Shown here one piece after another: positions 3,793 to 57,011 of a stretch of 64,000 bases of DNA. The position numbers and the translations under genes were made by a program. The stretch comes from Blasia pusilla. Taxonomy: Eukaryota. The notes under the pieces were generated by a model that made no database searches, was not told the origin of the DNA, and was given only the letters and a program-made list of their open reading frames with translations. The DNA is taken from the NCBI GenBank assembly GCA_050084515.1, contig CM114271.1:9920001-9984000 (forward strand), read 5' to 3'. Numbering within the stretch: the first letter of the stretch is position 1; the number at the start of each line of letters is the position of its first letter.

Positions 3793-3872
<80 letters not shown>
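3793..3872. repeat. (GA)40 microsatellite
   Basis: Read directly from the sequence. Confidence 0.98.
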
Positions 3873-34909: not shown

Positions 34910-35630
34910 TAAGGTTGCACATGGACATAGTCCGTGTTTGGGGACATGTCCATGTCCGTGGACTTATGTTTGTCATATGGACTGACATGTTCATGCGAGC
35001 TCGAGTACCGAGGGCCACAACCCAAGCCCTCCGGAAGCCCGCACTTGTTGCGTGGGCTGCAGCCCTAGGCGAGCTTGGTGCGGGCTCAAACCCGCAAAAT
35101 TTAATTCAAAAGATCATCTTTTGGTCAAGTGGACCAATTTTGTCCGGCGGACCAAATTTTTTGTCGCCCTCTAGCCCACACCCAATCAGCCCTGCTTGCC
35201 CCATGCCGCACTTGCCCGCCCGGAGCCCGCACCTGCCCGCCGAGAGCTCGTGCCTACTGCCTAGAGCTGGCGCCGGCCTGCCCAGAGCCCGCACCTACAG
35301 CTCCTTGCCCTAGCCCATGCCCAATCAGCCTTGAGCCCGCGCATGCATGTTCGCCTGGAGCCCGCGCCTGCTTTCTCGAAGCCGAGACTGGCCCGCCCTA
35401 GCTCGCGCATGCCCACCCTAGCTCGAGACAGCCCACCTTGAGCCTGCACTTGTCGGCACGCCCAATCAACTTGGAGCCTGCATCTGCCCGCATTGAGCCC
35501 GCCCTACGGGCCACGCAACATGTGCGGGCTCCGTGAGCCCGGGTCTAGGTGGCAAGCTCCGAGGTGGCCTTGGGTGCGGGCTCATCATGTCTGTCCCATG
35601 GACAGACTTGTCCGTTTCTGTACAAACTTG
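34910..35630. mobile_element. Non-autonomous TIR element (MITE, hAT-like), GC-rich
   Basis: Interrupts the Gypsy leader. Ends TAAGGTTGCACA / TGTACAAACTTG. Degenerate 8-bp TSD ATTATGTG / GTTATTTG. Internal GCCCGC-rich motifs. Confidence 0.7.
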
Positions 35631-36279
35631 GTTATTTGGGATATTGGGCTTCATGCATACGTTGAGAGCATCATGGATATATGGGCTTAGGGGACATAGA
35701 CCTATGTTGGATATCCAGAGTTCATGGTATATTCTATCGATGAGATGATATGACAGTAGTCGATTTTCCGCACCACGCTGCTTTTGGCACACACTACACA
35801 TCTTAATGAGAGGGAGTGTACATTGATTGCTGGGGGGCTGGTATTCTGGCAGGAGAGAGTAAGAGAGGAGAGGAAGAGAGGAGAGTCTCTCTTCAAAAAA
35901 AGGGCCAAATCCGCCTCCTCTCTTCAAAACTTTTTGACATATTTGAAATTTTTGTTTGCTTTCAAATTCATGAAATCTTTAGAAGAGAGTAGGTAGTGGT
36001 CCACATTCGGGCCTAAAGAAACCTCCTTTTTCCAGGGGGCAAAAAAAAAGTAGACATCATAAGACCACTACAAACATTTTTCCATCACTGTCCATGTGAG
36101 CCAAAGTTTCTTCACATTACCTATCTCGGTCTACAATAAGCAGTGCCCATGGGTAGTTTTGTTGGAGGACCACCCGAATGCGCATCGGTACGATGCCAAC
36201 CTCTCTTTTTGCAAGGATTTTTTCCTGCATCATGGCCTTCCCTGAATTGCCTCATAACCAACTTTCCTGACATCCGAAA

Positions 36280-37388
36280 TGGCAATCCGACAAGTAGTAG
36301 GAATCCTGCACATCTTAGACAAGAAAAGAAGCCTACAACTGGTTTGACGAATGTAGGGGAAGGAGCCAAAAGTTAAGAAGCCCGCCTCAATACTTCAGAA
36401 GTTGGTCTCATAGGGAAAGAGTTCGATCACTCAAGCAGCCAACCTGTCGGAATTCGACAGCTTGCCTGGAAATGGTTAAAAAGTTGCAGTGGGCAAAAAG
36501 CTCAAAGTTGCAACCCGTCGGAATCATACAGGTTGCAAAATTGTAATTCCAAGTAGCTAAAAGAACACAATCCACAAGTCCAAAAAAAATTTCCAACAAA
36601 CTTTTACAAACATCATTATCGGTTGAAAAAATCTCGTCCTTTATTACCTCTAAAGGAACCTCGGAAATGTACATTTGACCTAGTCTATGATTTCTTCAGC
36701 CTCGTCATCTACAAATTTACTCCTAACTCTCCTAGGTTCCAGTACAAAAGGAATGTACTGGGATACAAGTGGCTCCTCTGGCCGATTGTAGACGGGGATC
36801 GAAAATGTTGGCGAATTCGAGAGGCTTGCCCCCCCTAGGTACACCATAACGGTCCCATGTAACCTGATTTGAGTCCCACGGCCTTCCTCGGCAGTATATC
36901 TTGTACGCTCTGCAATGTGACACCCATCCAATATCAATATGTGCTCCGTCCTTGGTAATACCATGATGGCAATCCCACAGGTAGTAGGAATCCAACACGT
37001 TTGAGAGAAGAAAAGAAGCCTACGCCTTCTTTTACGAGTTGAGGGGAAGGTGCCAAGGTGAAGAAGCCCACCAGACTGCCTCTTAAGTTGGACCAACAGG
37101 GAAAGAGTCCGATCAGGCAACTTGTCGGAATCCAACAGGTTTCCTGGAAGTGGTAAAAAGGTGTAGTGGTCAAAAAGTGAAAAGTTGCAAGCAAGAGAAA
37201 TCTGACGGGTTACAAAATAGAAGTCCGCGGAGTACATAGATGATCACATTCGAAAAGACATAAAAAATGTTTAGCAAACTTTTAGAAGCACCACCATCGT
37301 TCGAAAAAATCTTCTCCTTTATTACATCCGAAAAAAGCTCGGAACTGTACATTTGATCTATTCTATGAAATCTTTTGCCTCATCATCA
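36280..37388. repeat. Diverged ~420-bp direct duplication in the MULE left arm (36280-36710 and 36968-37388)
   Basis: GGCAATCC..CA.GTAGTAGGAATCC, GAAAAGAAGCCTAC and TGTACATTTGA occur in the same order in both units. Confidence 0.8.
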
Positions 37389-37443
37389 AATAACTCCCTA
37401 CTCCAAACGCTGCAGTCAAGCTGGGTCCTTGAGTTCTTTGAAC

Positions 37444-40400
37444 TCACTCGTCATCGTCTGAGAGCTCTTGCAATATTACTTTCCGCCTTGCCATTCCGAT
37501 TTTTGTAATCTTTGGAAGTGACGATGGTGTCACTACCAATGGTGGGTCTGGAATCGGAGCTCTTTGCTTCGGTGGAGAGTTGTACGCCCCAACGAACCTT
37601 TCGTATTCTGCCTTTGCCTCCTTGCAAAGGTCAAACAATTCCTATCTTCCCTCGAGGCAGAGAATGTTCCTGCCACTCTGCCAGGCGCCTTTGATACTCG
37701 CCCCTGAAAGTCCCACTAAGTCAAACACCAAGTCACCCGGCCTTGAGCAGAGCTCGATGAGCGTTTGCATCAGGGCTGGCAACTTTTCCCTTCCTCCCAA
37801 AAGTGGGGTACCATCTTGCATGTAAATTCCCAGGGGGGAATTGTACAAACTATCTAAGCTGTACCACTCTGAGCATGGATCCACAGGATCCTAGATCTTG
37901 AACACCTGGAAGTTGTGCTCATGCCGAACGAAGCAGTAAACGTAGGAGTGCTCCATCTGTAAAGAAGCACGTTGGAAAGAATGTCAACAACTTGGCATAA
38001 TGTGCAACACGTCACCAAAGAACTCCGCTTGACCCTAGAGAACTTTTTTCAAATACTAACATTGGAGCAACCTGTCGGAGTCGGACGGGTTGTTTTGTCC
38101 ATGACCCACCCGTTGGAAGGCGACAGGTTGCTGGCTTAGAGCAGCCCATGCTTATCGAGAGCAACCCGCCGCTGACGGCGCTTTTTTTCGAAACACAGGA
38201 AAAACCATAGTAATCGCAACCCGCCGGCGTTCCGACGGGTTGCACGTTCACCGGCGTTTTCCCTGTGTTTCTGAATAAGATCCGACCCGTCGGAAAGCGA
38301 CGGGTTGCTCTCAGCCAAGCATGGGCTGCTCTAAACCAGCAACCTGTCGCCTTCCGACGGGCTTCTCACAGAAAAAAACAACGGATATATACTATCTGGA
38401 GACAGGAATAGAGCCATACCCGAATCTGGCTCGTCGCGAATCGGAGTGGGTACTCGTTCTTGATGATCCACGATTGCGCCGTCCTCCACTTCAGCGACCT
38501 CTTGACGCATTGGAGGTTGAAAAGCTCGTCCTTGCTCCCTCCAGTCAACACTAAGAAGCAGCCCATGTCACTCAGATAAGCGTCTGCAAAGGACAACAAT
38601 AGCGCGATCTGGTCATAAGAGAGGGGAACATTCCAGTCAGGTACCCCGTCCGACGGATTCTTGTCCCACAATCGCAACCCCGAGGGCAGATCAGCGATCA
38701 ATAGATCCACTGCCACCTCTTCGACCATTCCATTCACCGTCCAGGGTGCGTGCCCGCTTCGTTGAAGCTTTCGTCCCAGCGTTGTCAATTTATCAATGGC
38801 GGGTGTCGACGCTTGAGAATTGAAACTTTTGAGCTCATCTAGTAAATTCGTGAACTGAAGGAGGACGCTTGTCCGGGTCGTTGTTTCTCTATGTCTTCCC
38901 AAGGATGATGGACTGTATTCTCCTTGGGACAACCCTGGCACCTCTCGCTTCCGCTTCTCCCGAGTCTGCGGTCGGCTTGTCGGGGTCTCTATGACCTCAT
39001 ACTCTGTGGAGTTTTTTTCGCGGAGGACCTGGTCCAACCCTCTCTCCCCGCTCGCCTGGACGATTCCGCCTCTGGCCTTGAATCTTTAGCCTCTCTTTGG
39101 GAAGACTCGGCCTCGGAATTCTTCCCTCCCCTCGCCTTGCCTTTGAGACCCGTTGTGGATTTGTCTTTGGTTGTGCGGACCTTTGAAGCCAACTCAGCTG
39201 TCTCGAGGGCTTGCTCTTTCGCATCTCCTCCGAAGAAGTCTTCAAGCTGCACAAAATTGGGGATGTCATCCCGTCGTGAGGCCACTACATCATGAAGCAC
39301 GCGTAAATCTTTCTCGATGATGTCTTCAGGGTGGTTGAAGTCTAGCCAAATCGGGCAATTCTCCACCTCCCAATCGGACATGTGCTGAGCCATCTCCGTA
39401 TCGTACATGGAGAATGTCTCTCCATCAGGCGGCGAAGCCCACAATTTCAAGGCTGCCGGTAATTTTCCCCAGGTACCTGCATTCTTACAATGCACGAGGT
39501 ACCTGAAGACCATCCGTTGGGCAGCTCTTAGTCGAACTGAATCGGTTGCCTGCTCCTGAAGATCTCTCTTCTTCTTTGCTTGATCCCGTTTGTTCCCCTC
39601 GATTTCTTTGTCAAGGTTTGCCTAAGGGAGGACGCAAACCTTCAACATCGTCTTGAATCTTGGGTTTTTGATGGGCTTGTCTCGGATGTCATCGAGCCAA
39701 ACCTCGAAATCTACAGCACTTTCCAGGTTTGCTTCATTCGGAATGGGCTCTAATCTTTTGAGCTCCGCTTGGAGACCGTTCAGCACGGACTTCCCTATAA
39801 CCCGCAACGCATCCCAAAATGACCATTCGTGGAGCCAGTGGGAGATCACTGGATCAGACACACCCGGAGGATGGTGTGCCGCTCTCTTCTGGGCCTCTGT
39901 GCCCTCGAGATTGATTTTCATCACTCGGATCCTCCTAAACTTGCTTATTCTGGACAACGCAAACCGATGCACACGATCTAGGGACACTTTCTCCCCAATC
40001 CGACCTTGCGGATCTTCATCCCTTTTCCGTTGGCGCTTGATAATCGCCTTCAGCTCCTTGTAAAACTCCGGACCAAGTTCGGGGTTGAGAATGCTGATGT
40101 AGCACTGCATCTTGCTTGCTGTGTATTTCGTGGCTGTAGATACTGCAGCTTTGATGAATTTCGTGCACTCAGACCCAGATACTTTCTCCCTCAGCTCCAG
40201 CTCCAGTGCAGCGCTCTTCTTCGCGGCCTGTATCTTCGACCAGCAAAGGATTGTTACGGCTGCATCTTGGGAAATAAACTTATTTGCCCAAGTCTTCTTT
40301 TTTATCTGTGCACCCTTTGCAAGCATCTCGATTTACCAGGCGTCGCTCAAGAACCCCTTGTACTCTGCCGGGTGCGTTGTAAGCACCTTCTTCACCCGAT

Positions 40401-42446
40401 CGCAATCCTGGATCCAGTGGTGGGTGACATTCCCCTCCGATACAATCCTGCACATCCAAACTCAATTTCAGAAAATTTGTAAGTTACATGGGTTCCTGCT
40501 ACCCGTCGGACTCCGACGGGTCGTCACAGCTCAGGGTCGGATTCTAGCAACGAGCTAAATGATTCAACCCGTCGGAGTCCGATGGATTGCATTCACATTT
40601 GTGAATGCCTGGTTCAACCCGTCGGACTCCAACGGGTTGTCAGATAGTCTATATCAAACGTGAACATAGCAACCCGTCGGAGTCCGACAGGTTGCGCAAT
40701 TGCATGGAAAGCTGCAATTTGACGCGAAAAAGGTAGCTTCCAACTTCCGAATGCAACCCGTCGGACTCCGACGAGTTGCTTTCGGCCAAAAACATAAAAA
40801 AGCCTCCAAACAGCTTCGAGTCAAGCAACCCGTCGGACTCCGACGAGTTGCTTTCGGCCAAAAACATAAAAAAACCTCCAAACAGCTTCGAGTCAAGCAA
40901 CCCGTCGGACTCCGACGAGTTGCTTTAAGCCAAAAACATACTAAACCTGTGGTCAGTCGAACAACTCGTCGGAGTCCGACGAATTTCTTTCTTCAAAAAA
41001 CATCCAGAAAAGGCGGCGAGTCGAGCAACTCGTCGGACTTCGAAGAGTTGCTTTCGGCCAAAAACATCCTAACTTCTGCCGTTATTCGAGCAACTCGTCG
41101 GAGTCCGACAAGTTGCTTCACCCATTCATCAATCGAGCAACTCGTCGGAGTCCGACGAGTTGCGTTTGGCCAAAAGCATCCCAACAACAGTGGCAACCCA
41201 AACAACTTGTCGGAGTCCGACGGTTTGCAGCAAGAAGAAACTTACGTGTTCATGGCATGCATGGCCATCTCCACAGTCGCCATGTGATGAGGGTATGGAT
41301 GAAGGACCACTCCCTTCACGCAAAAATGTGCCTCAAAGGAGTTTGGGCGCTCCTCTGCAAACTTTGTCCACGCCATGAACCTGTGATTTCCATCCCAGAT
41401 GAAGAAATGCAGATTCTTCATCCAGCTGAATTCCGTGCCCTCTACTTGCCATCTGAAATCCAGGTCTCTCATCCTCCAGAATGTGTCGAGCTTTTCCAAG
41501 TCCTCCTCCGTAACTAGGGCTTGGGTTCCATGCTCGTCGTAAGGCTGAACATAGAAGGGAGGGAAGCTGTTGACGTAGGATGCTGTCGCCGCCGATTGTT
41601 TGAGCTTCGCGATATCCTTGTCGGACTGAATTTCGCTGACGTATTCCATTGTCCGCAATCGGCAGAGTGGAATTCTCAGGGCGTTGTGTCCCTCCATCAG
41701 TGCCATCTGCTTTACCACCTGTTAGAACCGGGACAAGATCAATAAGCTACACTGAATTGCCAATGAATTGCAAGATGGGCCTTTACATAACTCAAAAAAC
41801 CCAGATCCTCTCTTACCCGCTCGAAGATTGGGTCGGTTTCTTGACCAGCCAACTTGTCTGAGACAGCAAATGGCAAGTCCACTGGGAACTCGTCGATCCG
41901 ATAGAGGTCGATTTCTTCCGCCTGGCTTGGAGACGAGGATGATTGCTCTCCTGCTTCTTTGGCAATGTCCACCATCTCCACGCTGGCGGTCGTCATTACC
42001 TCATTGTCCGTGATTTGAACTTCTGCCGTTTTTGCTATGTTGATTGTGTCCCCGGACTTCATCGGGGACATTTCCCGCATCTCAACACTTTCGGTTGGAC
42101 GAGGAGGGCTGTTGTCAATGGCTATTGCTTTTTCCCTCCTTGCTTTAGCCAATTCTGCTCTCCTCACCAACGCATCCAGACGCTTCTTTTCTCGCTTTTC
42201 GTCGGCGATCCTTTTCTTCAAGGCCTACGACTTCTCAGCCTCTGTGTTCTGTTTATCGAGCGCCTCTTGTACATGTCTCGCAAGAAGCTCCTGGTTGTGC
42301 ATCTCCGCTTCCCTTTCCTGCTCCTCGATTTCCTGCTGCCTAATCTCATTTGCCGAAGGAGGCCCTGGAGATGCTGACGTAGGAGTCCTAATGGACTTAG
42401 GAGTGAAGCTCCCAAACTTAGTTGCTTGAGCTTTTTTCCTCGTCAT
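37444..42446 (-). pseudogene. Spliced cargo gene: charged N-terminus, ParB/Srx-like domain, beta-class N4-C/N6-A DNA methyltransferase-like domain
   Basis: FFIWDGNHRFMAW (ParB/Srx GxxR patch, 41380-41394). VDLLIADLPSGL...W...LLSFADAYLSDMGCFLV (motif IV region). REKLPALMQTLIELCSRPGDLVFDLVGLSGASIKGAWQSGRNILCLE (motifs X, I, II). Adjacent ORFs at 42225 and 37642 join in frame across single TAG stops. GT-AG introns at about 41245-40450 and 38417-37958. Confidence 0.82.
40498..41229. repeat. Intronic cluster of about 12 copies of the 27-bp palindrome, including a 72-bp tandem unit
   Basis: GCAACCCGTCGGACTCCGACGAGTTGC at 40753, 40825 and 40897. Perfect palindrome GCAACTCGTCGGAGTCCGACGAGTTGC at 41137. 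Confidence 0.95.
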
Positions 42447-42726
42447 TTTTCCTGGAAATGCCTCCACCTATGTCCACGATGAATTGCTTGATCAATCGCC
42501 TTGCTGATGTTGAGATGAGTCGCCTTGATGGGTAGCTCAAATCATCTCGCGATCGTTCAATCGAATCGTCCCGCTCTTGTTCGGTCAAACCGTCTCGCTC
42601 TCGTTCCCTCGTATCGTCTCGCAATGACTCGCCGTGTGAAACACCTCTTGGTATCTGATGAGCTGCTGCGCGGGAAAGCAATGGAGATCGCGAAATGAGA
42701 AACCAGAAATGAGCGATTTGTGCCCT

Positions 42727-42733
42727 ATTTATA
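42727..42733 (-). promoter_or_regulatory. Candidate TATA box of the ParB-methyltransferase gene
   Basis: TATAAAT on the minus strand about 280 bp upstream of the ATG at 42446. Confidence 0.55.
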
Positions 42734-42822
42734 ATTTTCTAGCCGTTGGGTTGACCGTTGGGTCCCGTCGTCCTTTCGACGGCGACATGCCGGCCGTTAC
42801 GAAAGTCCGGACGTGAAAAATG

Positions 42823-43453
42823 GCAACCCGTCGGAATCCAAGAGGTTGCGCGCCTCCTCCGTCTTGGGAAGATAACGCAAGGTGCGCGAGCAACCCGTCG
42901 GAGACCGACAGGTTGAGCGCCTCCGCCGTCTTTGGACAAGAACGCGAGGTACCCGCGCAACCCGTCGGAGACCGACAGGTTGCGAGCCTCCGCCGTCTTC
43001 GGACAAGAATAGGACATACCCACGCAACCCGCCGGAGACCATTGGGTTGCACGCTTCCCTCGTCAAGGGTTAGCAACGCGGGCTTCCCGTGCAACTCGTC
43101 GGAGGCCGACAGGTTGCACGCTTCCTTCATGTAAGCGAAACAAGGCGAGGCCCTTGCGCAACCTGTCAGAGGGCGACGGGTTGCACGTCTCGCCGTCTTT
43201 GGGCAAGAAGGTGCGGCACCCGCGGAACTCATCGGGAACAAACGGTTTGCACGCTTCCTTCATGTAAGTGTTACACTGTGAGATAATTGGGCAACCCGTC
43301 TGATGCCGACGGGTTGCAAGCCTCCGCCATCTTCGGGCAAGAAGGAGCGGTATCCGAGCAACTCGTCGGAGAGCGACGGGTTGCCAGCTTTGACTATGTT
43401 TGCGTTTGAAGGTAAGGCAGAAGCCTCCAACCCGTCCAAAGCCGACGGGTTGC
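42823..43453. repeat. Phased array of ten 27-bp palindromes with ~67-bp period in the divergent promoter region
   Basis: Unit starts at 42823, 42890, 42957, 43024, 43091, 43158, 43224, 43291, 43358 and 43427. Confidence 0.95.
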
Positions 43454-43661
43454 AGGCTTTGCTTAGCTTGGGTTAATTGTTGAGTTACCAAGACTCCGAC
43501 GGGTTTCAACAAAATGAAGTGTGCTTCGCAACCCACGTCTCTGCTTCCCAAATCCGGTAACACATTGCAACATAATTGAATCCATTGTGTCAGAAAATTT
43601 CGCCTACCAAACTTCATCTTGTCAGTAAAATTCTGTCAGGAGTATCTGTTTTCCTATTCAC

Positions 43662-43668
43662 TATAAAT
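43662..43668 (+). promoter_or_regulatory. Candidate TATA box of the transposase gene
   Basis: TATAAAT followed by a (TTCTCA)n pyrimidine patch and the ATG at 43738. Confidence 0.6.
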
Positions 43669-43737
43669 TAAAAATTCTCATTCTCATTCTCATTCTCTTT
43701 CTCATTCTCACTCTCCTCCCGTACAAAATTTTTCGGA

Positions 43738-46688
43738 ATGGATAATTATGTGAAGCTCACTTGTGGCAATCATCTGGCGGCCCTTCCTCAATCAGAAATC
43801 GTTCGACCGCAAGCTCGTGAGTTTTTCATAGCAGTGGATGAAAATTTTCTCTCCCTCCGATTTCTTCTCCAAATTGGAACCATCTTTGTATCCAAGGATG
43901 TTAGGGTGGACGGTACGGAGGACATAATAGGTGAGATAGTCCAACCAGTGTCTGCAGACCGTAAAGTATGGAATCTCCTACCTCTAGCAAATGGTCAATA
44001 CAGAGTTTATGGCCTGCCCCTGAATTTGTCAGTTTCCCAAGTAGACGGTCGAAAATTTCCTAGTGCTCCGAGCTCTACGTTTGCAACTCCTAGCTTAGTA
44101 GATCCGGCTTCGACTCCAACTTCACACGCTCGTAACAATGTTGTTCTTCTTGAAGAGATTCCGGATGTTATCAACCTTAGTGAATCTTTCGGACACCAAC
44201 CGGGCCCTTTGTCCGCCTACTCGTTCCTCTTGCGAGTATCAGGCAAAATTTTGCTTTCGTCTTTGGCCTTGAAAATGTTCAAGCACATTCTTGTCGACGA
44301 GCTACCGCCCACGTACGATGGTAATTGCATTTTTGAGTTGCCTCCACTTGCTGCTCTTGCTCAAAAGAAAGATGGAGGATGCCTGAAGGGTATGGATAGA
44401 AAGTGTGATTTTCATCGATGGTGCAGGCTTCAACGGACAAGTGCTTCAATTCCAGATGGTCCTTGGATTGTCTCCCACCGCCAATGCGTCGGAGCCTTGG
44501 AGTGTAGAAGTCCAGCATGCCCATATCTAGAGCGCAACGGGCGAGTCAATACGTCGCAATTCCCCCCCAAGAATGCAGAAACTCCATACGAGGTCGGTTC
44601 CACCATACCGCCGGGAGGCCATCGATGTCCTCATTGTCAGCCATCGCCCTTCTGCGTTGGAGCGTGTCCTGCATACATATTTTTCATTGTCCATGACTTG
44701 GGCTCCACGTCAGAGTACACTAGGCTGGCAGTTCATGTTGGCTCCCACACTCATCCTGTGACCGATGCAATTCAGAGACACATCAAGGAGGATGTGGCAA
44801 AGAAAATTTCCGAGGTCTACAGAAACTCTCCAGGTTCAAAGCCCGGAGTGATCAAGCTCACAATGGCATCACAAATTTGTGAACAATTGCTTGGAATCCC
44901 TGGACAGGGCGAGAAACAACTCTGGGAAAATCTCGCATTTCTTGCTGATCCTGAATGCTTCCGGAATTTGCTGCGTCAAATACGAGTTTTGGATGGACAG
45001 ACGGCCAAAATGGATGCCATCGCCAGAATCAAGGCCAACTCCAAATTTCCATTCATTCAGAGATGGCAGTTCATGGGCCAAGAAGGCGAGGGATCCAGGG
45101 CCTATGTCTTCAAAATGTCAACCACAGGTCCGTTGAGTGGCCTTGATCTTATAGATCGAATGAGGCATGGGGAAGATCTTTACAGCAGCTGGGTAAGCTT
45201 TGATATTTGCTACAGAGTGCTGAATGGATGGTTGACGATGGATGCTCATGTTTATGACCATGTGGAGAAGGGACTCAAAACTATATTTGTCTGTGAAGTA
45301 AAGGCAGAAGACGTTGGCAGTTTGAAGATATGCTAGTTACTCTTATTGGAGGTGGTGAAGGAAAACAAAAGGCCACCTCCGGAAATTTATGGGTTCATGG
45401 CGGACAATGCACAACGTGGGTGGATTGCTATCCGGAAAGTGTTCTGGGGTGGAGAGGTTCAATCGGAGAGGGAAAGGTCGGATGTTTTCCATTGGCAACA
45501 GTCTGTGACCCGTACACCAAATCTTGCATCAAGGAGAATAAGAGGACAGAGCATGTCACTCTACTCCAACGTTGCAAGGACAGCAAAACCTTGAAGCAAG
45601 CCATGGAATGCCAGGAAGAACTTCATGGGTGGTGGAGGAAGCATGCGATTGAGGGGAAGTACAAAGAGTTGTGCTCTTGTTGAGTTGGTGGACTGTATGT
45701 ATGAGACAATGGGGAAACTTCATGCGGCATGTTAGTTCACTATTTTGTCTTGTCAAGCTCACGCTGAGAATTGTTTGTAAAGTTGCAGCTCAAGTTGAGA
45801 AGCGTGGGAACTATAGGGATTTCAAACCGAAGAAACCAAGCAAGCTGTCGGATGCGACGGGTTGCCCGAGTGTGCAACCCGACGGAAACCGACGGGGTTG
45901 CATCCATAATTTTGGTGCAACCTGTAGACAAGTATGCAAGTTGCATGTATACAAGGCCTGCAAATAGTTCAACCCAGATGGGTTTCGGATGACTTGCACT
46001 TGGATCTTCCAGAGTGGCCACAGGTTCTTGCAACCCGTCTGAATCCGACGGGTTGCAACACGTCGGGACCCGACGGGTCGCAGAGTCATTCATGGGATGC
46101 CTCGGCCTTGCAACCCGTCTGAATCCAACGGGTTGCAGTAGGTGGGTTTAAGGTTGCAACACGTCGGGACCCGATGGGTCGCAGAGTCATTCATGGGATG
46201 CCTCGGCCTTGCAACCCGTCTGGTTCTGACAGGTAGCTTATTTCTTTGACTCCTGAGTTATTTTCGTTCCCTTCTAACATTGCCGTCGTTGCAGGGATTG
46301 AACATTCATGAAAATGCCCTCTGCCCCAACACAAGTGGAGCAGAAAGTGTTCATTCCTCTTGGAGGTCGTCACAAGCATGCCAACGAATTTCACTTGTGA
46401 AGGCATGCCAACAAGACCAGGCAAGAGCAATGCTACAGTGTGCAGCATCCCATATCTTCCTCACAAAAGGCATAACAAAAGGAAGGGGACCGTCGATCTA
46501 CGAGCTCTATGTCATGTTCATGTGATGACTTTGTCCAAAGAGAGACAAGTGGTAAAAGGTATTTCCCTTGTAAGCACATGTACTATGAGTTGCTGGTAGT
46601 TTTAAGAGAGTCGGAGGTAGGAGTAGGAATCCACCAACCAATTACGTCCCTCAAAGAAGTGCGAAGTATTTTAAACAAACCACTTTGA
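43738..46688 (+). pseudogene. MULE-type DDE transposase with N-terminal GCM/WRKY-like zinc domain and C-terminal SWIM finger; has a stop, a frameshift and an internal deletion
   Basis: CVGALECRSPACPY...CPHC...C...HVGSHTHP. First Asp in VSFDICYRV, second Asp in FMADNAQ, C/D(2)H motif DVFHWQQSV, Glu in NTSGAESVHSSW after an intron at about 45731-46294. SWIM CSCDDF...CKHM. Confidence 0.85.
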
Positions 46689-47306
46689 GGATGCAAAATA
46701 AGGTTTTAGATTGTACTTTTATTTTTCCTGAACCTTCACTTTGAGCTTGAACTCTATTCAGCCCGGGGCAAATGATAGATTTTTTCCAGACCTTGGATGG
46801 AAAAAGTGATTGGTTCCACACTTATGATTCCATTGATTTTTCAGTTTTCTAAATTTTGTGCAATTTGCAACTCGTCGGACTCAGAGGGGTTGCCAAAATA
46901 TGGAAGAGGAAAAAAAAAATTATGGGACTGCTCAATAACTGAACAAAAAAGTGCAAAAAAATTCACACAAAAAGTTTCCTCTCTTCAACCCAACGGAAAC
47001 TCTCTTCAAAAAAAAATATCTATTTCGATTGAATGTAGTTTCCTCTCTCCTCTCTCCTCTCTTCCTCTCCTCTTACCGCACCTCTTGATTTCCGCATGTG
47101 TTTAGCTTGAGTGATTGAGGGATTACTCGCGAGATTGAGAGTGATCGTATGAGAGGGGCACGAGGGTCATCACGGCATCCTTTCAGGAATCTGAGAGGCA
47201 AGGTGGTGGAACTAAGAGGAGCTCTAGAGGATATACGCGGAGTGGTGTGAGGTTTCAAGAGTCTCCATGTGAGGGACTGCCTCAACCTCCTTCTATGTCG
47301 TCTTCA

Positions 47307-47469
<163 letters not shown>

Positions 47470-50400
47470 GAGTTTGTTAGTGCATCACCGCACACACTGA
47501 GTGGTCCGACCGCCTAGGAGTATGAGATGGATGATCGGGATAGAGGAACGCGTAGGTTTTCAAGTGCTATAGGCACGATAAAGTTGCATGACTTTGTTGT
47601 GGAGTTTAGGAGTTGGTGTGATTCACAACGGGCTAGGAACTCTAGAGAGTTCAACCCGTTCACAGCATAGAACGGCATGTTCCAGCACTTAGAGGGGGCA
47701 TCCATGGACAATTACCATGAGTTCTCTCAGAGATATGTCGAGGAGATTGAGGCATGGACACTCTACTATGACCCACACTATGTGTCATGGACTGAGCTGT
47801 TCCCAGACGAAGAGGAGGAGTGAGGAGAGGCTACTTCCTCTTCTACTACTGATGTGTTAGGAGGGAAAACTCGAATTGGAGCAGTTGCATCATCCAATTA
47901 GGTTCGTTCTAGGTTCAACCTCGTGATTGAGTTCTTTGCGGAGTTGTAGACAAGCTACCAAGGGGGTACGGATTGAGAAGTTTTGGAGCATCCACAACTT
48001 CCACAAGTGCTCAGGGTGAGAGTTTGCGTGAGGCCTACAATTGCTTGCGTTGGTTGATTACCATCACTGAGGGAGTGAAAGAGTCCCGAGCTATCTTGGC
48101 ATGGTACGCAATGCTCAATGGAGACCTGCGGAAATAGGTGAGGGATGGGATACTTCTTATGCACAACTCACCTACGTTGAGATATTTTTGTATGACCATC
48201 AAGAACATTGAGCGCAACATGGTTGAGGACAGCGTAGCCACCATGGATTCTGTGCAAGAGCAATCACAATAGCCTGTACCATGAGTGTAGCAATGTGGCT
48301 TTTGAGAGAGATCTCTCGCACCAAGAGTGCAAGAGGATACCAAAAGGCTGTGCCACAGAGAACTGTGCCTTCATATGCAACTCAACAGCAACTACCTGCG
48401 ATTATCTGTTGGGCATGTGATGGAGCCCATCACCAGTGCGATTGCACCCATCGTAGTAGTGGATGCATCCCTCAACATTGAGGAGAAGATGGGCCCGCAC
48501 TAGGAGTCTACCAGTGTGACCATTTTCAGAGGTATGGTCACACACGTGCGCGATGTTTTAGCTTACACCTTGAGTTACGTCCGGAGCGAGGGCCAAAGAG
48601 GGGATCAAAGCGAGTTGCCGATCGGGATGGGCTTAGAGGTCGTGCAAATGGTCCCCTTGGAGGACGAAGAGTTGGATTTGCCCGGAGGGGTGGTGGAGTT
48701 GCCCATGGAGGAGGTAGAGTTCCACCACCTAGACGCGTCCATGAGGACGTTGGGCGTGAGGTTGAGATGGTTGCTCAGATATAGCAATTGCAGTAGCAGA
48801 TTGCCGTTGTGGCATTGAGGTTACCCGATGCCGAATCTATGGCATCGACGTATTATGGAGCATCTAGAGACATGGAGGATCTTGGTTGGATATGTGCTAC
48901 TATCCTGATGGAGGCAGCCGTTGTTGTTACACATGGAGCAACTGCAAAGTTGGATCCATAAAGAGGGGAAGCCAAGAAACGGACCAAGCTTCCTTAGTCT
49001 TTTATGTTGTCTAAGACGATGAGGACCCCATCGATGGGTTCTGATCAGAGTTTCTGAAGAGCGAGGAAGGCGGTGGGACTCAAATCAAGTTACATGGGAC
49101 CATTATGGTGTACCTAGGGGGGGGCCAAGGCTCTCAAATTCGCCAACATTTTTTATCCCCGTCTACAATCGGCAAGAGGAGCCACTTGTATCCCAGGACA
49201 TTTCTTTTGTACAGGAACCTAGGAGAGTTAGGAGTAAATTTGTAGATGACGAGATTGAAGAAATCATAGACTAGATCAAATGTACATTTTTTAGCTTCCT
49301 TCGGATGTAATAAAAGACAAGATTTTTTCAAACGATAATGGTGTTTGTAAAATTTTGCTGAATATTTTTTTTGGACTTGTCGATTGTGTTCGTCTAGCTA
49401 CTCAAAATTTTTATTTTGCAACCCGTCTGATTCCGAAGGATTGCAACTTTTCACTTTTTGACCACTGCAATTTTTTAACCATTTCCAAGCAAGCTGTTGG
49501 ATTCTGACAGGTTGGCTGCTTGAGTGATCGGATTCTTTCCCTGTGAGACCAACTTCTGAGGCATTGTGGCGGGCTTCTTCACTTTTGGCTTGTTCCCCTA
49601 GTATCGTCAAATCAGTCGTAGGCTTCTTTTCTTCTCTAAGACATGTTGGATTCCTACTTCCTGTCGGATTGCCATTTCGGATTCCCAACGTGTTGGATTT
49701 TCGTGGGTGCAAGGTGGAATGGAATCACTTCTCAAAATCTTTCCTTTGTTATGGTGAGTTTGCTTGCAAGGGGTGCAAGCCATCTACTTTCGACGAGTTG
49801 CAAGAGTTGCAACCTGTAAAATTACGACGGGTTGGGAGGGGTGCAGCTTCTCGGTTTCTCAGATTTAGGATTTGAATGAAGGGACATCAGTTCCTCTTTA
49901 CTCCAGACAGCTAACAATCTTTTGGTTCAATCATCGTCTCGTGTGTTCACATTTCACAAAGTTGGTCTTGAGCAGACATCATTCATTATGGGGCAATTCA
50001 GGGAAGGTCATGATGCAGGCAACAATCCCTACAAAAAGAGAGGTTGGCATCGTACCCGATGCGCATCCGGGTGAGGTCTCATGACACATTAACACTTTAG
50101 AGACACTTGGGAATAGGGGAAGCTCAACAATTCTTATTGTGGTACTATGTTGCCAATGGTTTTCCATAATGTATGATGAGTATTGATGCCTTCTGCAAGA
50201 AGAGTCAATAATCATTTACAGGCATTTCTTTGTGCCTTTCTTTTGCAAGAAAAGATGTCAATCCATAATGTCAACCAAATATTCCGAGAAGTTAAACCTT
50301 GAAAAGCACCGCAGTTTGTTGAGACCATTGTTAGAGTCTTTATTTGAACCTTTCATTGAGATGAGATTGCTACTTCTAGTCAAATTATTTGCCAATGGTC

Positions 50401-51192
50401 CTCCAACAAAAATACCCTTGGGCACAGCTTACTGTAGACTGAGATATGCAATATGAAGAAACTTAGGCTCACATGGAGAGCGATGGAAAAATGTTTGTAG
50501 TGGTCTCATGATGTCTACTTGTTTTTCGCCCCCTGGAAAAAGGAGGTTTCTTTAGGCACGAATGTGGACCACCACTACCTACTCTCTTCTAAAGATTTCA
50601 TGAATTTCAAAGCAAACAAAAATTTCAAATATATCAAAAAGTTTTGAAGAGAGGAGGCAGATTTGGCCCTTTTTTTTTAAGAGAGACTCTCCTCTCTTCC
50701 TCTCTCCTGCCAGAATACCACAATGGAGTAGGAAGGATGTATTGGGTCAGGAACAACACTGTAAATTCAAGTGTCATAGGGGTGTATGTGGTGCACATCA
50801 GTTGCTTTCCCACATGTTCATGTGATGACTTTGTCCAAAGAGAGACAAGTGGGAAAAGGTATTTTCCTTGTAAGCACATGTACTATGTGTTGCTTGTAGT
50901 TTTAAGAGAGTCGGAGGTAGGAGTAGGAATCCACCAACCAATTTTTTCCCTCAAAGAAGTGCAAAGTATTTTAAACAGACCACTTTGAGGATGCAAAATG
51001 AGGTCTTAGATTGTACTTTCATTTTCCAGAACCTTCACTTTGAGCTTGAACTCTATCCAACCAAGGAAAATGATATATTTTTTCCAAACCTTGGATGGAA
51101 AAAGTGATTTTTTCCACACTTATGATTCCAATGATTTTTCCGTTTTTAAAATTTTATGCAAGTTGCAACCCGTCGGATTCAGACAGGTTGCC

Positions 51193-54100
51193 TGTTAGAT
51201 TCTCAACATCCACTTCTCTGAGCACCATATATCTAATCCGCCCCCTTGTATGAGGAGAAGCCTAGATTGATGGTTCTCACTTAGACGTCGAAGGAGTCAT
51301 AGTAATATGACGTAGGTGGTTTATGGAGTGGCGTTACTAGGATTATCCAATCCTATAATGCATTAAGGTGCGGGGCACCCTGATTTTTCTATTAATAGAA
51401 ACAAAGAAAAAAAGGTAAAAATCCTAGTTTCTCGAGTAGTGATGTAGTGAGTAGCCGCAGGGGTAGCGTATTCTCGCATGTTTTGTTATCTCCATGTTCA
51501 GGTTCCATCGAAGCTCTTTTGTGAGCACACGGACGGACTAGGCCACTTTGTATCTCTAAGTTTTGTAAAGATTTCAGTGATTTCGTCACTTTCTGTTTTC
51601 TCACATGGTATCAGAGCGCTAGGTTTTCCAATATTTTGTATTTGGCAATCTACTGTGTTTGCACTAAATCTTGAGAGATGGCTACTTCTTTGTCAGTTCG
51701 TGCTCGCCCTCCTCCGCTGGATGAAGGGAAGTTAGATGGGTCTAACTATACATTGTGGAATTTCAAAATGAGAACTGTCCTCGAGTCATTTGAGATCTGG
51801 GAGACGGCCATAGGGGTCGATTTGAATCCACAAGCTACTTTGAGTTCTGCATGTTCATCTTCATCTAGTGATATCGATCCTGTTGTATTGCTCGAATGGA
51901 AACGCAGAAACGTTGATGCTCTATATGCGATTGGCACGAATGTAACTGATTCTGTCATGACTCTCATTCAACATACAACCACTGTTGTTGAGGTGTGGAA
52001 CATTCTGAAGAATCGGTATGAAACGAGGAATGAGACTCAGATTCAGAATCTGGAGAATCAGCTTAAGTCCAAGAAATTTTCAGAAGGAGAAATCGCAGAG
52101 CAATTTTTGACAAGGATCAAGAATCTTCAAGATCAAATGGCGTCCGTAGGAATTTCAAAGTCTAGCAAAGATTTGGCAAGTCGGTGCATAAGGATTTGGC
52201 CTCCAAGGTATGACAGGTTGGTCACTGCATTGAATACTCAAGTAAGACCCGCGTCGCTTACTTTTGAACAATTTAGTGTAATGTTGGTAGAAGAGGAAAT
52301 GCGCTTCAAAGCAATAGAGGGAAGTGATGTAGCATTTAGTGCCAACGTATAGAGAGGTAGAAATCAAGATTATAGTTCAAATGTCAAGAAGAAATTTCCA
52401 AGGAAAGCCTTCAAATGCTTTTATTGTGGTAAGCTAGGTCATCTTATCAAAGATTGTAGAAAGAAGAGTCACGATGAGAAGAACGGTTGTTTAAGACCTA
52501 AGAAGGAGTGTGGAAATTTTGTAGAACTAGGAGAACATGAAGTAGATGCTTTGGTAGCAATTGAAGAGTTTTGCACACAGGCAGAACATTCCACTAAGTC
52601 AAAGAGTGAAGATGCATGGGTGCTCGATAGTGGAGCATCTAGGCATATGACTAATCATAAGGATTGGTATAGCTCCTTACAGCCTCTACAGGAGCCCATC
52701 GTTGTTACTGTTGGGAATAATGCAAAGTGCCCTGTAGAAGGGAAAGGTACAATTTCTTTCGTCTCACAAAAATGAGATGAAAAGAAGTTAACTGATATAC
52801 TGTTCGTACCAGAGTTGAAGCAAAATTTGATTTCAGTAGCAGTATTATATGATCGTGACCTAGAAGTTCGTTTCAAGAAACTGGAGCAGTCATTTAGGAT
52901 GCCAATGGGAAAGTAGTGGGTGAAGGAATACGACGTGGAAATATCTACGAGTTGTATGCTCTCACGATAAGTGTAGGTACCGATCTTAGTAGCAATAAGT
53001 TGTGGCATGAAAGATTTGGTCACCTAAGCTTTCCCTTACTAAGTCAGATACAGAAATCTGGCATGGTTATTGATTTACCAATAATTTATGGAGTGTCGGA
53101 TACATGTGAAGCTTGTATGATGGGCAAGCAACACCGAAAACCATTTCCACAAGAGTCCATCAATAGAGTAAAGGCTCCTCTAGAGTTGATTCATGTTGAC
53201 CTTTTGGGTAAAATGAGAACACTGGCATTAGGTGGTTCTTCCTACTTTTTTTTAGTTTTCAACGATTATAGTAGGAAGATGTGGGTGTATTTCCTTCGTG
53301 ATAAGGCAAGTGCTTTTGGAAAATTTAAAGTATAACACAAGCTGGTTGAGAATGAGACAGGAAAGAAGATACAAAAGCTTTGCACCGATCGAGGAGAAGA
53401 ATTCTTATCAACAGAATTCAACAAATATTTGGGGGAGCATGGAATCAAGCAACAGTTAACCACGACACCTACACCACAAAAAAATGGAGTTGTTGAGCGT
53501 CGAAACCGTACAGTGGTGGAGATGGAAAGATGTATGATGAAAGCAAAAGGTTTGACAGAAGGATTTTGGGCTGAAAAGTCGCATTATCTTGCCGTTTACA
53601 TTCTAAATAGAAGTGCAACCAAGTCAGTACAAGGCATGACTCCTCATCAATCATACTCAGGTAAGGTACCATCAGTCCAACATTTCAGGACTTTTGGTAG
53701 TGAGTGCTTTGTATATATTCCTGAAGCATCCAGGACCAAGCTGGAGTCCAAGAGCAGGAAGTGCATCTTTATGGGATACAGTGATGAGTCTAAAGCTTAT
53801 CGCCTATGGTGTCCTGAGGCAAAGAAGATGCTTGTGAGTCGTGATGTGGTGTTCCAGGAACAACCTTGTCAAGTGGCGGATATCAATGGTCTGTCCATAT
53901 TATCATCAAAGGAAGAGATAACCCACCAGAGCACACCACCAATGTTTACACCAGATCATCAAGAAGAAAAATTTGGTGATGATTACAAAGAGCAGTCTGC
54001 TCTTCCACTACGGTCGTCATACCCTAAGTGGATAAAGCAGCTATTGGATGGTAAAGATCCACCAGCAATTGATGAAGTTGTTACACATCCAAGGAGATCC

Positions 54101-56183
54101 AAGAGACAAGAGGAGCAAAATAGAGCTTTCGCACATCTCGTCAACATGGCCTTGATGACAGAGGTCTTAAAGGTGGAAGAGCCATCATGCTTGGATGAGG
54201 CCCTTGCTCATCCTAAATGAAGAGAGGCCATGCAGATGGAGATGGATGCTATTCAAAGAAATGAAACTTGGACTTTGGTTGAGAAGCCAAAGGATAGGAA
54301 GATAATACGCGCCAAGTGGCTATACAAGACTAAGTACAAGTCGGACGGTATATTGGATAAATTCAAAGCGAGGTTGGTTGCACAAGGATGCGCACAAATC
54401 AGAGGTTTTGACTACTATGAGACTTTTGCTCCTACTGCAAGGATGAAAACCATTCGAATTGTTCTAGCGGTTGGAGGAACAAGATGTTGGTCTGTATACC
54501 AATACGATGTGAAGTCTGTCTTTTTGAACGGGAGTCTCAAAGAGGAGGTGTATGTATCTCAACCACCAGGTTTTGAGACACCCGGATCAAAAGAGAAAGT
54601 GTGTTTACTTCATCAAGCATTGTATGGATTGAAGCAAGCCCCAAGGGTATGGTATCAACGAATAGATACATTCTTCCGAGAGAAGGGTCTCATCAAGAGT
54701 TCGTCACAAGAAAATTTGTATGTGTTTTACGAAGATGGGATATATATGTTGATAGTCCTGTATGTGGATGATCTAATCATCACAGGAGACCACAATAAGA
54801 AAATAGAGGAAATGAAGTGAGTGTTGAAATCTGAGTTTGAAATGTCAGATTTAGGTCTTTTGCACTACTTTATAGGGCAGGAGATTTGGCACCAGTCAGA
54901 TTCTATTTTTCTCTCTTAGAAAAAGTATGCAAGAGAAATCTTGAAGGCATTCGGGATGACCGAGTGTAAGGAAGTGGTCTCGCGAATGGAGGTAGAGTTG
55001 AAACTCTCGATGGAGGATGTTTCACCATTGGTAGATGAAAAGTTGTATAGAAAGCTTGTAGGTAGTTTGATATTTTTGTGTAACACTAGACTAGACATTA
55101 GCTTCAATGTGGGAGTGTTCAGTAGGTTCTCAATTTAGCCTCGTGAGAACCATTGGAAGGCAGGGATGCGTGTGTTGAAGTACATCAAAGGCACTATCGA
55201 GTACCCCATCACCTATGGAGTAGGGATGGAAATGACAGCTTTTTGTGACTCGGATTGGGTAGGACATTCAGATTCTCGGAGATCAGTTTCGGGTTATTGC
55301 TTCTTGGTAGGATCAGGTGTGGTGTCATGGGTCAGCAAGAAGCAACCTACATTGGCTCTTTCTTCTACCGAGGTAGAGTACAAGGCGGCTTGTTATGCTT
55401 CTTGTGAAGCAGTATGGTTGAGATGGATATTGGAGGACATAGGAGAAGCACCACAAAGTGCTACTATAATGTGGTGTGACAATCAGAGTTGCATTGCCAT
55501 AGCACATAATCTTGTGTTTCATGCTCGTACAAAGCACATAGAGATCCAATATCATTTTTTTCTTGAGTTGATCGAGAGAGAGGTTTTGAAGTTAGTCTAT
55601 TGTCCAACATAGGATAACCGTGCAAACATCTTCACGAAAGCTTTGAGCGGAGATTAGCTCCACCGACATCTGAAGGATCTTGGCATTGGTCCAAGATAGT
55701 AGTCCACATGGGAGTGGATATTGATTGGGGGGGGTGTTGGATTCTGAACATCCACTTCTCTGAGCATCATTAATCTGATCGACCCCCTTGTATGAGGAGA
55801 AGTCTAGATTGATGGTTCCGAATTAGACGTCGAAGGAGTCATAGTAATATGATGTGGGTGGTTTATGGAGTAGCGTTACTAGGATTATCCAACCCTATAT
55901 TGCATCAGGGTGCGGGGCACCTTGATGTGTCGCAAGGATCCGGGGGCTACGCCTCCGGAAAATTTTTCTTATTAATAGACAAAGAAAAATAGGTAGAAAC
56001 CCTAGTTTTCCGAGTAGTGATACAGTGGGGAGCCGTAGCGGTAGCGTATTCTCGTATGTCGAGTTATCTCCATGTTCAGGTTCCATCGAAGCTCTTCTGT
56101 GAGCGCATAGACGGACTAGGCCACTTTGTATCTCTAAGTTTTGTAAAGATTTCAGTGATTTCGTCACTTTTTGTTTTCTCACA
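51193..56183 (+). mobile_element. Full-length Ty1/Copia LTR retrotransposon, decayed
   Basis: LTRs 51193-51605 and 55735-56183 (TG...CA). PBS TGGTATCAGAGC (tRNA-iMet) at 51606. G-run PPT at 55727-55734. Perfect TSD TTGCC at 51188-51192 and 56184-56188. Confidence 0.97.
51678..55699 (+). pseudogene. Copia gag-pol polyprotein with in-frame stops
   Basis: LDGSNYTLW, CFYCGKLGHLIKDC, WVLDSGASRHM, WHERFGH...CEAC, TPQKNGVVER, FKARLVAQG, LYVDDL, CDSDW, RTKHIEIQYHF, in the order PR-IN-RT-RH. Confidence 0.95.
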
Positions 56184-56470
56184 TTGCCAAAATGTGGAAG
56201 AGGAAAAAAAAAATCTATGGGAGTGCCTAAGCACTGAGAACAAAAGTGCAAAAAAATTCACACAAAAAGTTTCCTCTCTTCAACCCAAGAGAAACTCTCT
56301 TCAAATCACAGGAAACTCTCTTCAAATCACAGGAAACTCTCTTAAGAAAAATGTATCTCTTTAGGTTGAAGGTAGTTTCTTCTCTCCTCTCTCCTCTCTC
56401 TCGTCTTATCTCCTCTCTCCTCTCTTCTTCTCTCCTCTCTTCCTCTCTTCCTCTCCTCTTACTACGCCTC

Positions 56471-57011
56471 CCTCCTTGCCCGAGCCCACCCCTGCCCACC
56501 CCAGCTCGCGCCTAGTCCGCCCTAGCCTACACCCTGCTTGCCCTAGCCCGCCACAAGCCCGCATCGGCCCGCCCGCCCAGCCCTCACCCTACCCGCCCCA
56601 CAGCGCGCATGCCCGCCTTGAAGCTCGCGCTTGCTTGCCAGCCAAAGCCTGCTCGACCCTAGCCCGCGCCTGCCCATGCCCACCTCGAGCCTATCCCTGC
56701 CCGCCCATGCCCACCTTGAGCCTGCCGACTTGGAGCTCGCGCCTAGCCCGCGCCCATCTTGCTTGAGTTGCATGCCCCCTACCAACGCCTGCTTGCCTTG
56801 ACCCGCCCTTGCCCGCCACGAGCCCAACCTTGCCCCCCCAAGCTTACCATATGGGCCACGCAACGAGTGCGGGCTCTGTCATTCCGGGTCTAGGTGGTGG
56901 GCTTCAGGCAAGCTCAGGTGCGGGCTGCGTGTACCCAAGCCCGCACGAGCATGTCTGTCTTATGGACGGACATAAGTCCGCACATATGGACTTTGTCCAT
57001 GTGCAACCTTG
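56471..57011. mobile_element. Right part of a MITE related to 34910-35630
   Basis: Same GCCCGC-rich body and GGCCACGCAAC..GTGCGGGCT motif. Ends TGTCCATGTGCAACCTTG, the inverse of the left end at 34910. Confidence 0.75.

Follow-up and report, generated by a model that had tools for sequence, protein, structure and literature searches.

Palindrome clusters in a Blasia pusilla transposon as candidate sites for an element-encoded DNA-binding protein

What does a run of palindromes, repeated almost exactly every 67 bp between two divergent genes, stand for? The question is raised by a stretch of 64,000 nucleotides from Blasia pusilla (GenBank assembly GCA_050084515.1, contig CM114271.1, positions 9,920,001 to 9,984,000 of the forward strand), hereafter the window, in which a putative DNA transposon carries three genes, A, B, and C, and several arrays of the same palindrome (positions below are those of the window; features are listed in Table 1). 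A sequence-only reading of the array between genes B and C (array 2) had taken its constant period and drifting spacers as a sign of selection on spacing, as expected for a parS-like platform for cooperative protein loading that controls both genes. Judging from the sequence, we consider with moderate confidence that array 2 is a duplication-built cluster of sites for a dimeric DNA-binding protein encoded by the element itself, situated in the control region of genes B and C; the binding of a protein to the palindrome, the identity of the binder, and the effect of binding are what we infer.

Conservation of the palindrome in the array between genes B and C

The palindromes of array 2 follow the design GCAACCCGTCGG-N3-CCGACGGGTTGC (27 bp), and the ten units start at positions 42823, 42890, 42957, 43024, 43091, 43158, 43224, 43291, 43358, and 43427. 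Re-cutting of the units reproduced exactly the spacings given in the sequence-only reading, namely, 67, 67, 67, 67, 67, 66, 67, 67, and 69 bp, and Tandem Repeats Finder applied to 42823-43125 yielded a period of 67 bp with 0% indels. The seventh copy (43224) is degenerate, GGAACTCATCGGGAACAAACGGTTTGC, and at both edges the register is continued, by a decayed unit (42756) on one side and an isolated half-site (43496-43507) on the other. Both spacer families described earlier are present, GCCTCCGCCGTCTT..GG.CAAGAA in units 42823, 42890, 42957, 43158, and 43291, and ACGCTTCC.TC in units 43024, 43091, and 43224, and a third type is found in units 43358 and 43427. In addition, the array contains a higher-order repeat of two units (~133–134 bp), with segments 43114-43235 and 43247-43369 being 79% alike.

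The units of array 2 are not uniformly conserved. In pairwise comparison, the 24 arm columns of the palindrome have a mean identity of 0.80, the loop columns one of 0.52, and the spacer columns one of 0.51, and 10,000 random draws of 24 columns never attained the arm value; on a tree built by the unweighted pair group method with arithmetic mean (UPGMA), parsimony requires 1.0 step per column in the arms, 3.0 in the loop, and 2.3 in the spacer. Palindromes conserved no better than the spacers had been named in the sequence-only reading as the mark of a neutral minisatellite, and the identities of 0.80 versus 0.51 point the other way. Since they are much better conserved than the spacers, the palindromes look like selected protein-binding sites, and we treat them as candidate sites.

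The dyad consensus over the palindromes is GCAACCCGTCGGAnTCCGACGGGTTGC (27 bp). In 38 palindromes with 13 arm pairs each, the paired fraction of cells is 81.8%, compared to 81.4% with shuffled partners (154 of 500 shuffles were as high), and three arm pairs are altered on both sides versus 3.6 expected. The arms hence mutate independently, and it is the half-site sequence that is kept, as for a dimeric DNA-binding protein, and not base pairing. Almost half of the departures from the consensus in these 38 palindromes (62 out of 130) are C>T or G>A, as expected from the decay of a methylated repeat.

The palindrome throughout the element and its family

The motif is not confined to array 2. The pattern CAACCCGTCGG-N3-CCGACGGGTTG with at most three mismatches has 29 matches in the window and none in 100 dinucleotide shuffles; half-sites with at most two mismatches number 71, all of them between 36439 and 51191, versus one to four in each of five shuffled windows. 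The palindrome occurs in ~45 copies, and every non-coding gap of the ~11-kb transposon is occupied: copies are found downstream of gene A, in the B–A and B–C gaps, in the gap inside gene C, and near both ends of the element. Three further arrays (arrays 0, 1, and 4 in Table 1) had been missed by the sequence-only reading, and single palindromes start at 36439, 36510, 37117, 46867, 49418, 49809, and 51165. The spacings in array 1 are 66, 50, 55, 84, 72, 72, 64, 64, 65, 47, and 65 bp, and another sister array is spaced at 25/55/46/55 bp; overall, the spacings outside array 2 range from 25 to 156 bp, and the tandem periods among the arrays are 64, 67, and 72 bp. From one array to another the spacers show no relationship, and the palindrome is identical. 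The remaining ~49 kb of the window, which consist of other transposons throughout, do not contain the motif.

Candidate arrays elsewhere were rejected. The string GCAACCCGTCGGNNNCCGAC was found in at least 117 metagenome stretches and eight viral contigs, with one match in each, as expected by chance; these 125 loci, mostly in G+C-rich DNA, have one to six half-sites per locus and no arrays. A blastn search against a phage collection produced no match, and the half-site strings encountered in the literature were, among the matches listed, chance parts of primers and the like.

Copies of the element were also observed in raw Hi-C DNA reads bearing the same species label (1.93 billion letters, ~1% of the run) and aligned at no less than 92% likeness. 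The summed read depths over 38000-47200 are ~170–3000; for a locus present once, this depth would require the genome to be no larger than a few megabases, and therefore the element is a high-copy family. Just 2609 of the 103697 reads are at least 99% alike to the window. In array 2, 88 reads support a joint that skips exactly 67 bp (43252 to 43320), and ~110 reads support a joint leading 111–113 bp back with 19–21 other letters, that is, by arithmetic, an addition of ~132 bp, or two units. In a minority variant (22 reads), 68 nt are replaced by 34, and in 59 reads array 1 is fused to array 2 with the loss of gene B. Thus, the number of units in array 2 is fluid among the copies, and it changes mostly by whole units.

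The same reads allow us to compare gene C of the window with its family. Relative to most family copies, the window copy has a nonsense codon TAG at 45334-45336 (the family majority at 45335 is G, making TGG) and frameshifts near 45511 and 45678, at which the family majority has 1-nt insertions. Loose read ends accumulate at 46513/46514 (2139 and 1413 reads), which means that the window copy lacks internal sequence present in most copies, and the absence from the window of two 16-nt strings derived from the reads likewise means that the family consensus has sequence missing here. Most family reads also diverge just upstream of the gene C start codon, with 1337 loose ends at 43735.

Taken together, these data bear on the possibility that the palindromes are a neutral minisatellite or merely recombination-prone, functionless and unstable tandem DNA carried in a transposon. 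Compared to the arms, the spacers of the same units evolve 2.3-fold faster and the loop 3-fold faster, and the identical palindrome is accompanied by unrelated spacers in at least five places of the element; since the arms are better kept and the dyad stands beside unrelated spacers, a uniformly drifting minisatellite is excluded. The varying number of units among copies, the deletions that join arrays, the higher-order structure, the degenerate edge units, and the C>T and G>A departures typical of decaying methylated repeats would all agree with neutral evolution, and we regard it as unlikely, if the least so of the alternatives.

The surroundings of array 2 are those of a promoter. The TATAAAT boxes reported to face outward on both sides are indeed present and are two of only three in the 64-kb window (one on the plus strand, two on the minus strand); the start codon of gene B (42446) lies ~280 nt downstream of the minus-strand box. 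In three RNA-seq runs, the first mates of the reads map mostly to the plus strand in the region 38.3–42.9 kb and mostly to the minus strand in the region 44.1–47.2 kb. Opposite RNA strands, combined with the orientations of the open reading frames, indicate divergent transcription away from array 2, which itself is nearly bare of RNA (0–0.55 per bin), and some reads cover array 1. The proposed bidirectional promoter is hence in fair agreement with the divergent genes, the outward TATA boxes, and the opposite-strand RNA, and this holds at the level of the family only.

Might a cluster placed in this way be read by a host protein? If an enhancer was captured or evolved by the element, a host dimeric transcription factor would recognize the palindrome, and the location upstream of two TATA boxes, the conserved arms, and the dyad symmetry without covariation are what one would expect. 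The half-site also contains CCGAC, which we take to be the core of the dehydration-responsive element/C-repeat (DRE/CRT), an unconfirmed likeness that spans 5–6 nt of the 12-nt half-site. However, the sites are not limited to promoters, being present in the intron-like gap, the 3' flanks, and the subterminal regions, and the motif is missing from the other ~49 kb of the window, although this DNA consists entirely of other transposons. We consider a host-factor cluster distinctly unlikely.

Period of the array and products of genes B and C

The regularity of array 2 can be assessed against the frequency of indels in the window. The 22 paralog alignments contain 141 gap openings per 1175 mismatches (ratio 0.12), and at this ratio the 93 inferred spacer substitutions, a count probably inflated by replaced segments, would be accompanied by ~11 indel events, compared to three or four seen (P 0.004–0.014). 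With the ratio lowered to 0.08 or 0.05, significance is lost (P 0.06–0.50 in total; P 0.32–0.50 at 0.05). Moreover, at 10.5 bp per turn, 67 bp equal 6.4 helical turns, and neighboring sites do not lie on one face of the DNA.

The claim that the spacing itself is selected is unsupported, as a constant period is the default outcome of the duplication of a 67-bp unit and the sister arrays are spaced at 25–156 bp. Array length is not fixed across the copies either: they differ here by whole units (−67 or ~+132 bp), with a minority length change of 34 nt. The higher-order repeat and the whole-unit differences between copies demonstrate that tandem duplication is active in array 2, and the sister arrays demonstrate that spacings anywhere between 25 and 156 bp are compatible with a working, or at least a persisting, palindrome. 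Thus, the strict 67-bp phasing is most simply explained as a footprint of tandem duplication, and a strict period in a tandem array is by itself no evidence of spacing selection.

The parS analogy had been linked to gene B. Four relatives of near-equal length, from metagenome or assembly sources, were found for its C-terminal part (41242-41721, minus strand), and they share with it the pattern IPLCRL...FFIWDGNHR...A.H..N; the alignment of this small protein family contains 24 invariant columns, including IPLCR and DGNHR. A word-based search among longer proteins revealed no relatives of gene B. In Pfam, PF02195 was absent from gene B and its four relatives at E-values up to 10, the only match being DUF1015 at E 0.13; NCBIfam gave no match, and neither did the PDB for the gene B protein, the gene B profile retrieving an unrelated weak match to eL24 at 0.035. 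The comparison of the gene B alignment with seven phage ParB_N domains (from one viral contig and six phage records) by hhalign yielded a probability of 2%, with the equivalent N-terminal segment in matching register. What is left of the proposed link between parS and ParB is therefore the resemblance of the motif FFIWDGNHR, with no statistical support from Pfam, NCBIfam, PDB, or hhalign; gene B may look ParB-like by eye, and as a label this is unsupported.

Two explanations assign the palindromes to gene B. The first one, which seems very improbable, is that of an unclassified, high-copy family of liverwort DNA transposons, orphan in Pfam, in which B would be a binder with a ParB/Srx fold that keeps the divergent promoters open via dyad arrays occupied by in-register cooperative dimers, an anti-silencing or loading system with an origin independent of VANC and TnpA. 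The second one is the spacing-selected, parS-like loading platform, where the ParB-like product of gene B would need exact 67-bp phasing. Spacings of 25–156 bp in the sister arrays of the same palindrome, the placement of neighbors on different sides of the helix, and the 34-nt length variant in some family copies (22 reads) all speak against such a need. The period is very regular despite spacers at ~51% identity, and the deficit of indels at the ratio of 0.12 speaks for the platform, but it is gone at 0.05 and is inflated if replaced segments are counted. Similarly, IPLCRL...FFIWDGNHR recalls the strand-helix...DGxHR layout of ParB/Srx in agreement with the hhalign register, but the homology lacks statistical support in all four comparisons. 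Taking all this into account, we consider the platform very improbable.

The least probable explanation of all is a hairpin in RNA (a terminator or a source of small RNA) or a DNA cruciform used in recombination or replication, as the perfect dyad design with 12–13-nt arms, the arrays that immediately follow the stop codons of genes A and B, and the RNA reads over array 1 are outweighed by arm covariation no greater than in shuffles, 18% of arm positions unpaired, a 12-bp stem that is short for small-RNA processing, and an almost complete lack of RNA over array 2.

For gene C, the putative transposase, a HMMER scan of a library of 1.84 billion proteins yielded 272 relatives at E ≤0.001. Sixteen of these were looked up, and the 13 with names all belong to liverwort species, Riccia sorocarpa (11) and Calypogeia fissa (two). 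A word-based protein search yielded none. The relatives have no Pfam family (15 and nine proteins scanned, in partly overlapping sets), and no Pfam match to a Mutator-like element (MULE) domain, Transposase_mut, was observed in gene C at E up to 10 or in the scanned relatives; D..D-like patterns visible by eye do not replace such a match. The sole family signal, a weak one, comes from the SWIM domain (PF04434), which barely passes the cut-off in the exon of the second copy described below (E 5.2e-4, 19.9 bits at a cut-off of 19.6) and falls below the cut-off in the window copy (E 0.0082, 16.1 bits); one relative is named a SWIM-type protein in UniRef. The Cys/His-rich block of gene C, a candidate for the WRKY-GCM1-type zinc finger (the GCM domain of the sequence-only reading), is kept across an alignment of 29 sequences. 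A profile search of the PDB with the gene C alignment gave no match, and the Atlas structure neighbors of one relative are only SWIM-like, at the C-terminus and with a low TM-score. Features of CACTA elements were not seen, the ends reading GGTA... and the element having no Pfam transposase families. Based on these protein comparisons, a Mutator-like label for gene C is plausible, not established, and its family resembles a Mutator-like lineage that is either unclassified or has diverged very far. None of genes A, B, and C has a Pfam or NCBIfam family that would assign it to the VANC type.

Known systems and other features of the locus

Returning to array 2 as a site cluster for an element-encoded dimer, the following mechanism may be suggested. 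The cluster would lie in the upstream control region common to the divergent genes B and C and be bound by a product of the element, the candidates being the accessory proteins A and B and, in gene C, the N-terminal region rich in Cys and His. Dense sites would enable the protein to locate other members of its family and to affect them, and the bound protein would activate or de-silence the element promoters and perhaps aid transposition; the 67-bp period, along with the two-unit repeat of ~133–134 bp, would be a by-product of tandem duplication and unequal exchange.

Several points weigh against this mechanism. The sites could be bound by a host transcription factor instead. All the evidence of conservation comes from paralogous units in one window. 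The RNA support is thin, 91–119 reads per run, nearly all of them only 90–99% alike to the window and thus derived from other copies. The window copy is dead, having the nonsense codon, the frameshifts, and the internal deletion, and hence function may be argued for the family only. Pfam finds no DNA-binding family in A, B, or C other than the weak SWIM match in C, and no VANC or TnpA homolog was detected, the VANC sequences not having been compared directly.

A close likeness is to VANDAL21, a Mutator-like element of Arabidopsis that encodes VANA, VANB, and VANC. VANC21 binds a 9-bp motif condensed as tandem repeats in the non-coding parts of VANDAL21 (Hosaka et al., 2017; PMC5735166); copies differ through gains and losses of repeat units, and the density of the motif decides targeting (PMC5735166; PMC10398659). 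The element studied here is also a three-gene DNA transposon. As in the VANDAL21 system, a short family-specific motif is concentrated in the non-coding parts, upstream of the transposase gene and in intron-like gaps, in tandem repeats that gain and lose units (here, −67 bp in 88 reads and ~+132 bp in ~110 reads), and the motif density is likely to be the key feature. The differences are that the 27-bp motif studied here is a dyad built from two half-sites of 12 nt and not, as in VANDAL21, a 9-bp motif in direct orientation; that no VANC homolog was detected; and that the host is liverwort-like and the system is known from its sequence.

The TnpA protein of En/Spm, a CACTA element, has a classical 12-bp motif in inverted pairs, bound by dimers, an arrangement like the one proposed here. 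A recent preprint describes two proteins, TnpA of Spm1 and the transposase of AtMu1c, that each bind clusters of their cognate motif and activate the cognate copies (bioRxiv 10.64898/2026.08.24.746577). Resemblance to En/Spm consists in the family-specific clusters of a ~10–12-nt motif that are non-coding, overlap the promoter, and are bound by an element-encoded regulator, here a presumed one (bioRxiv 10.64898/2026.08.24.746577). In contrast, the Spm clusters are subterminal, whereas the clusters here spread through the whole element; besides, Pfam finds no CACTA-type transposase in our element, and its ends are not CACTA. The AtMu1c example is that of a lone Mutator-type transposase that binds cognate motifs and activates copies (bioRxiv 10.64898/2026.08.24.746577), which makes gene C itself a candidate binder. 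The sites of AtMu1 are in the terminal inverted repeats, and the GA-rich ends observed here are unlike the palindrome.

A parS site is 16 bp long. ParB–parS resembles our case in having palindromic sites, sometimes clustered, beside a gene with a DGxHR-like motif, and differs in that the homology of gene B is non-significant and that here a nuclear eukaryotic transposon carries sites spread at variable spacing. Tandem arrays with a variable number of units, internal or terminal, have reportedly been seen in other DNA transposons, namely, Galileo and the clam miniature inverted-repeat transposable element (MITE) DTC84.

By analogy, array 2 would work like the VANC, TnpA, and AtMu1 systems and is not a member of them, since a protein of the VANC, TnpA, or CACTA type was not detected, the dyad motif is long, and the clusters extend over the whole element. 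The element is an uncharacterised transposon family of liverwort type; no published description of it came up in searches of the liverwort transposon literature. Transposon-encoded regulators that read dense clusters of their own motif have so far been worked out in Arabidopsis and maize, for VANC, TnpA, and the AtMu1 transposase, and the element from the window has the same architecture with an unrelated dyad motif and orphan proteins. If the binding is confirmed, the principle would be extended to a bryophyte, an early-diverging lineage of land plants, and a new and very specific pair of a DNA site and a protein would be obtained. In any case, the palindrome is a sharp marker for the annotation of this transposon family, and it accounts for the deletion derivatives between arrays.

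Table 1. Coordinates of the transposon, its genes, palindrome arrays, and associated repeats in the window
Feature	Positions	Strand	Remarks
Putative DNA transposon copy, ~11.2 kb	35840..47077		Three genes, holds the arrays; ends provisional
Scattered palindromes and half-sites (n=4)	36439..37213		Left subterminal region
Array 0, 5 palindromes	38067..38365		Irregular spacing; directly downstream of gene A
Gene A	38366..40332	-	Three abutting open frames; no family match; broken in the window copy
Array 1, 12 palindromes	40498..41228		Between the end of gene B and the start of gene A
Gene B	41242..42446	-	ATG 42446-42444; in-frame stop; probable intron near 41722-41738
24-bp tandem repeat, 3.5 copies	42540..42622	-	Presumed 5' leader of gene B
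TATAAAT box toward gene B	42727..42733	-	One of three TATAAAT in the window
Array 2, 10 palindromes	42756..43507		Palindromes at 42823-43453; 67-bp period; degenerate units at both edges
TATAAAT box toward gene C	43662..43668	+	70 nt upstream of the gene C ATG
(ATTCTC)7 microsatellite	43674..43715	+	Presumed 5' leader of gene C
Gene C, putative transposase, first coding block	43738..45840	+	Cys/His-rich region
Array 4, 7 palindromes	45839..46237		Includes a 101-bp double unit; gap between gene C coding blocks
Gene C, later coding blocks	46286..46688	+	SWIM-type zinc finger 46512-46676; break relative to the family consensus at 46513/46514
Single palindrome	46867..46893		~190 bp from the right end of the element
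Rearranged second partial copy	49062..51192, then 56184-56463		copia insertion between the parts; palindromes at 49418, 49809, 51165
copia-type long terminal repeat (LTR) retrotransposon	51193-56184		In the second partial copy; LTRs 51193-51606 and 55735-56184, ~90% alike

The left end of the transposon reads GGTATTCTGGCAGGAGAG..., and the right end (47064-47077), ...CCTCTCCTCTTACC, matches it imperfectly in inverted orientation, the match being GA-rich. At these proposed ends we could not find a target-site duplication such as the 9–11-bp one of MULEs, the 9-bp flanks being different and the right flank abutting a repeat that starts at 47099, and for this reason the ends are provisional. This repeat (47099-48978) and another one at 23244-24823 are 76–84% alike and contain an open reading frame with a CX2CX4HX4C zinc-knuckle-like motif; the repeat at 47099 abuts the right end of the element, and the loose DNA read ends observed at 47099 mark its boundary.

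One more observation concerns the transcripts of gene C. The variants T>C at 45812 and A>C at 45830 occur in 11 reads of each of two RNA runs and are rare in the DNA reads (7 of ~1600 and 20 of ~1600, respectively), and these RNA reads depart from the window sequence exactly at 45840, the start of the first palindrome of array 4. Hence, one expressed copy is spliced or built differently at this point.

The second partial copy is composed of an inverted duplicate of the left end (49062-50717), followed by the SWIM exon and the 3' part, and it closes with the 13-mer end sequence of the first copy at 56450-56462. The inverted duplication, 35840-36890 versus 49062-50717, is 1.0–1.6 kb long with 88–93% identity, and the rearranged copy possibly arose from aberrant transposition. 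The copia element inserted into it encodes gag (51675-52352), integrase/SH3 (53336-54220), and RVT_2 (54221-54820). The window as a whole is rich in retroelements of plant type, including a chromodomain Ty3 integrase, copia gag, and RVT_2.

C-rich tandem repeats with 20–31-bp units closely border the left end of the element on its outer side (35206-35437) and the second copy beyond its end (56470-56723), and they may be parts of a larger repeated context. Finally, the window contains two perfect (GA)n microsatellites, of 40 units (3793-3872) and 80 units (47310-47469).

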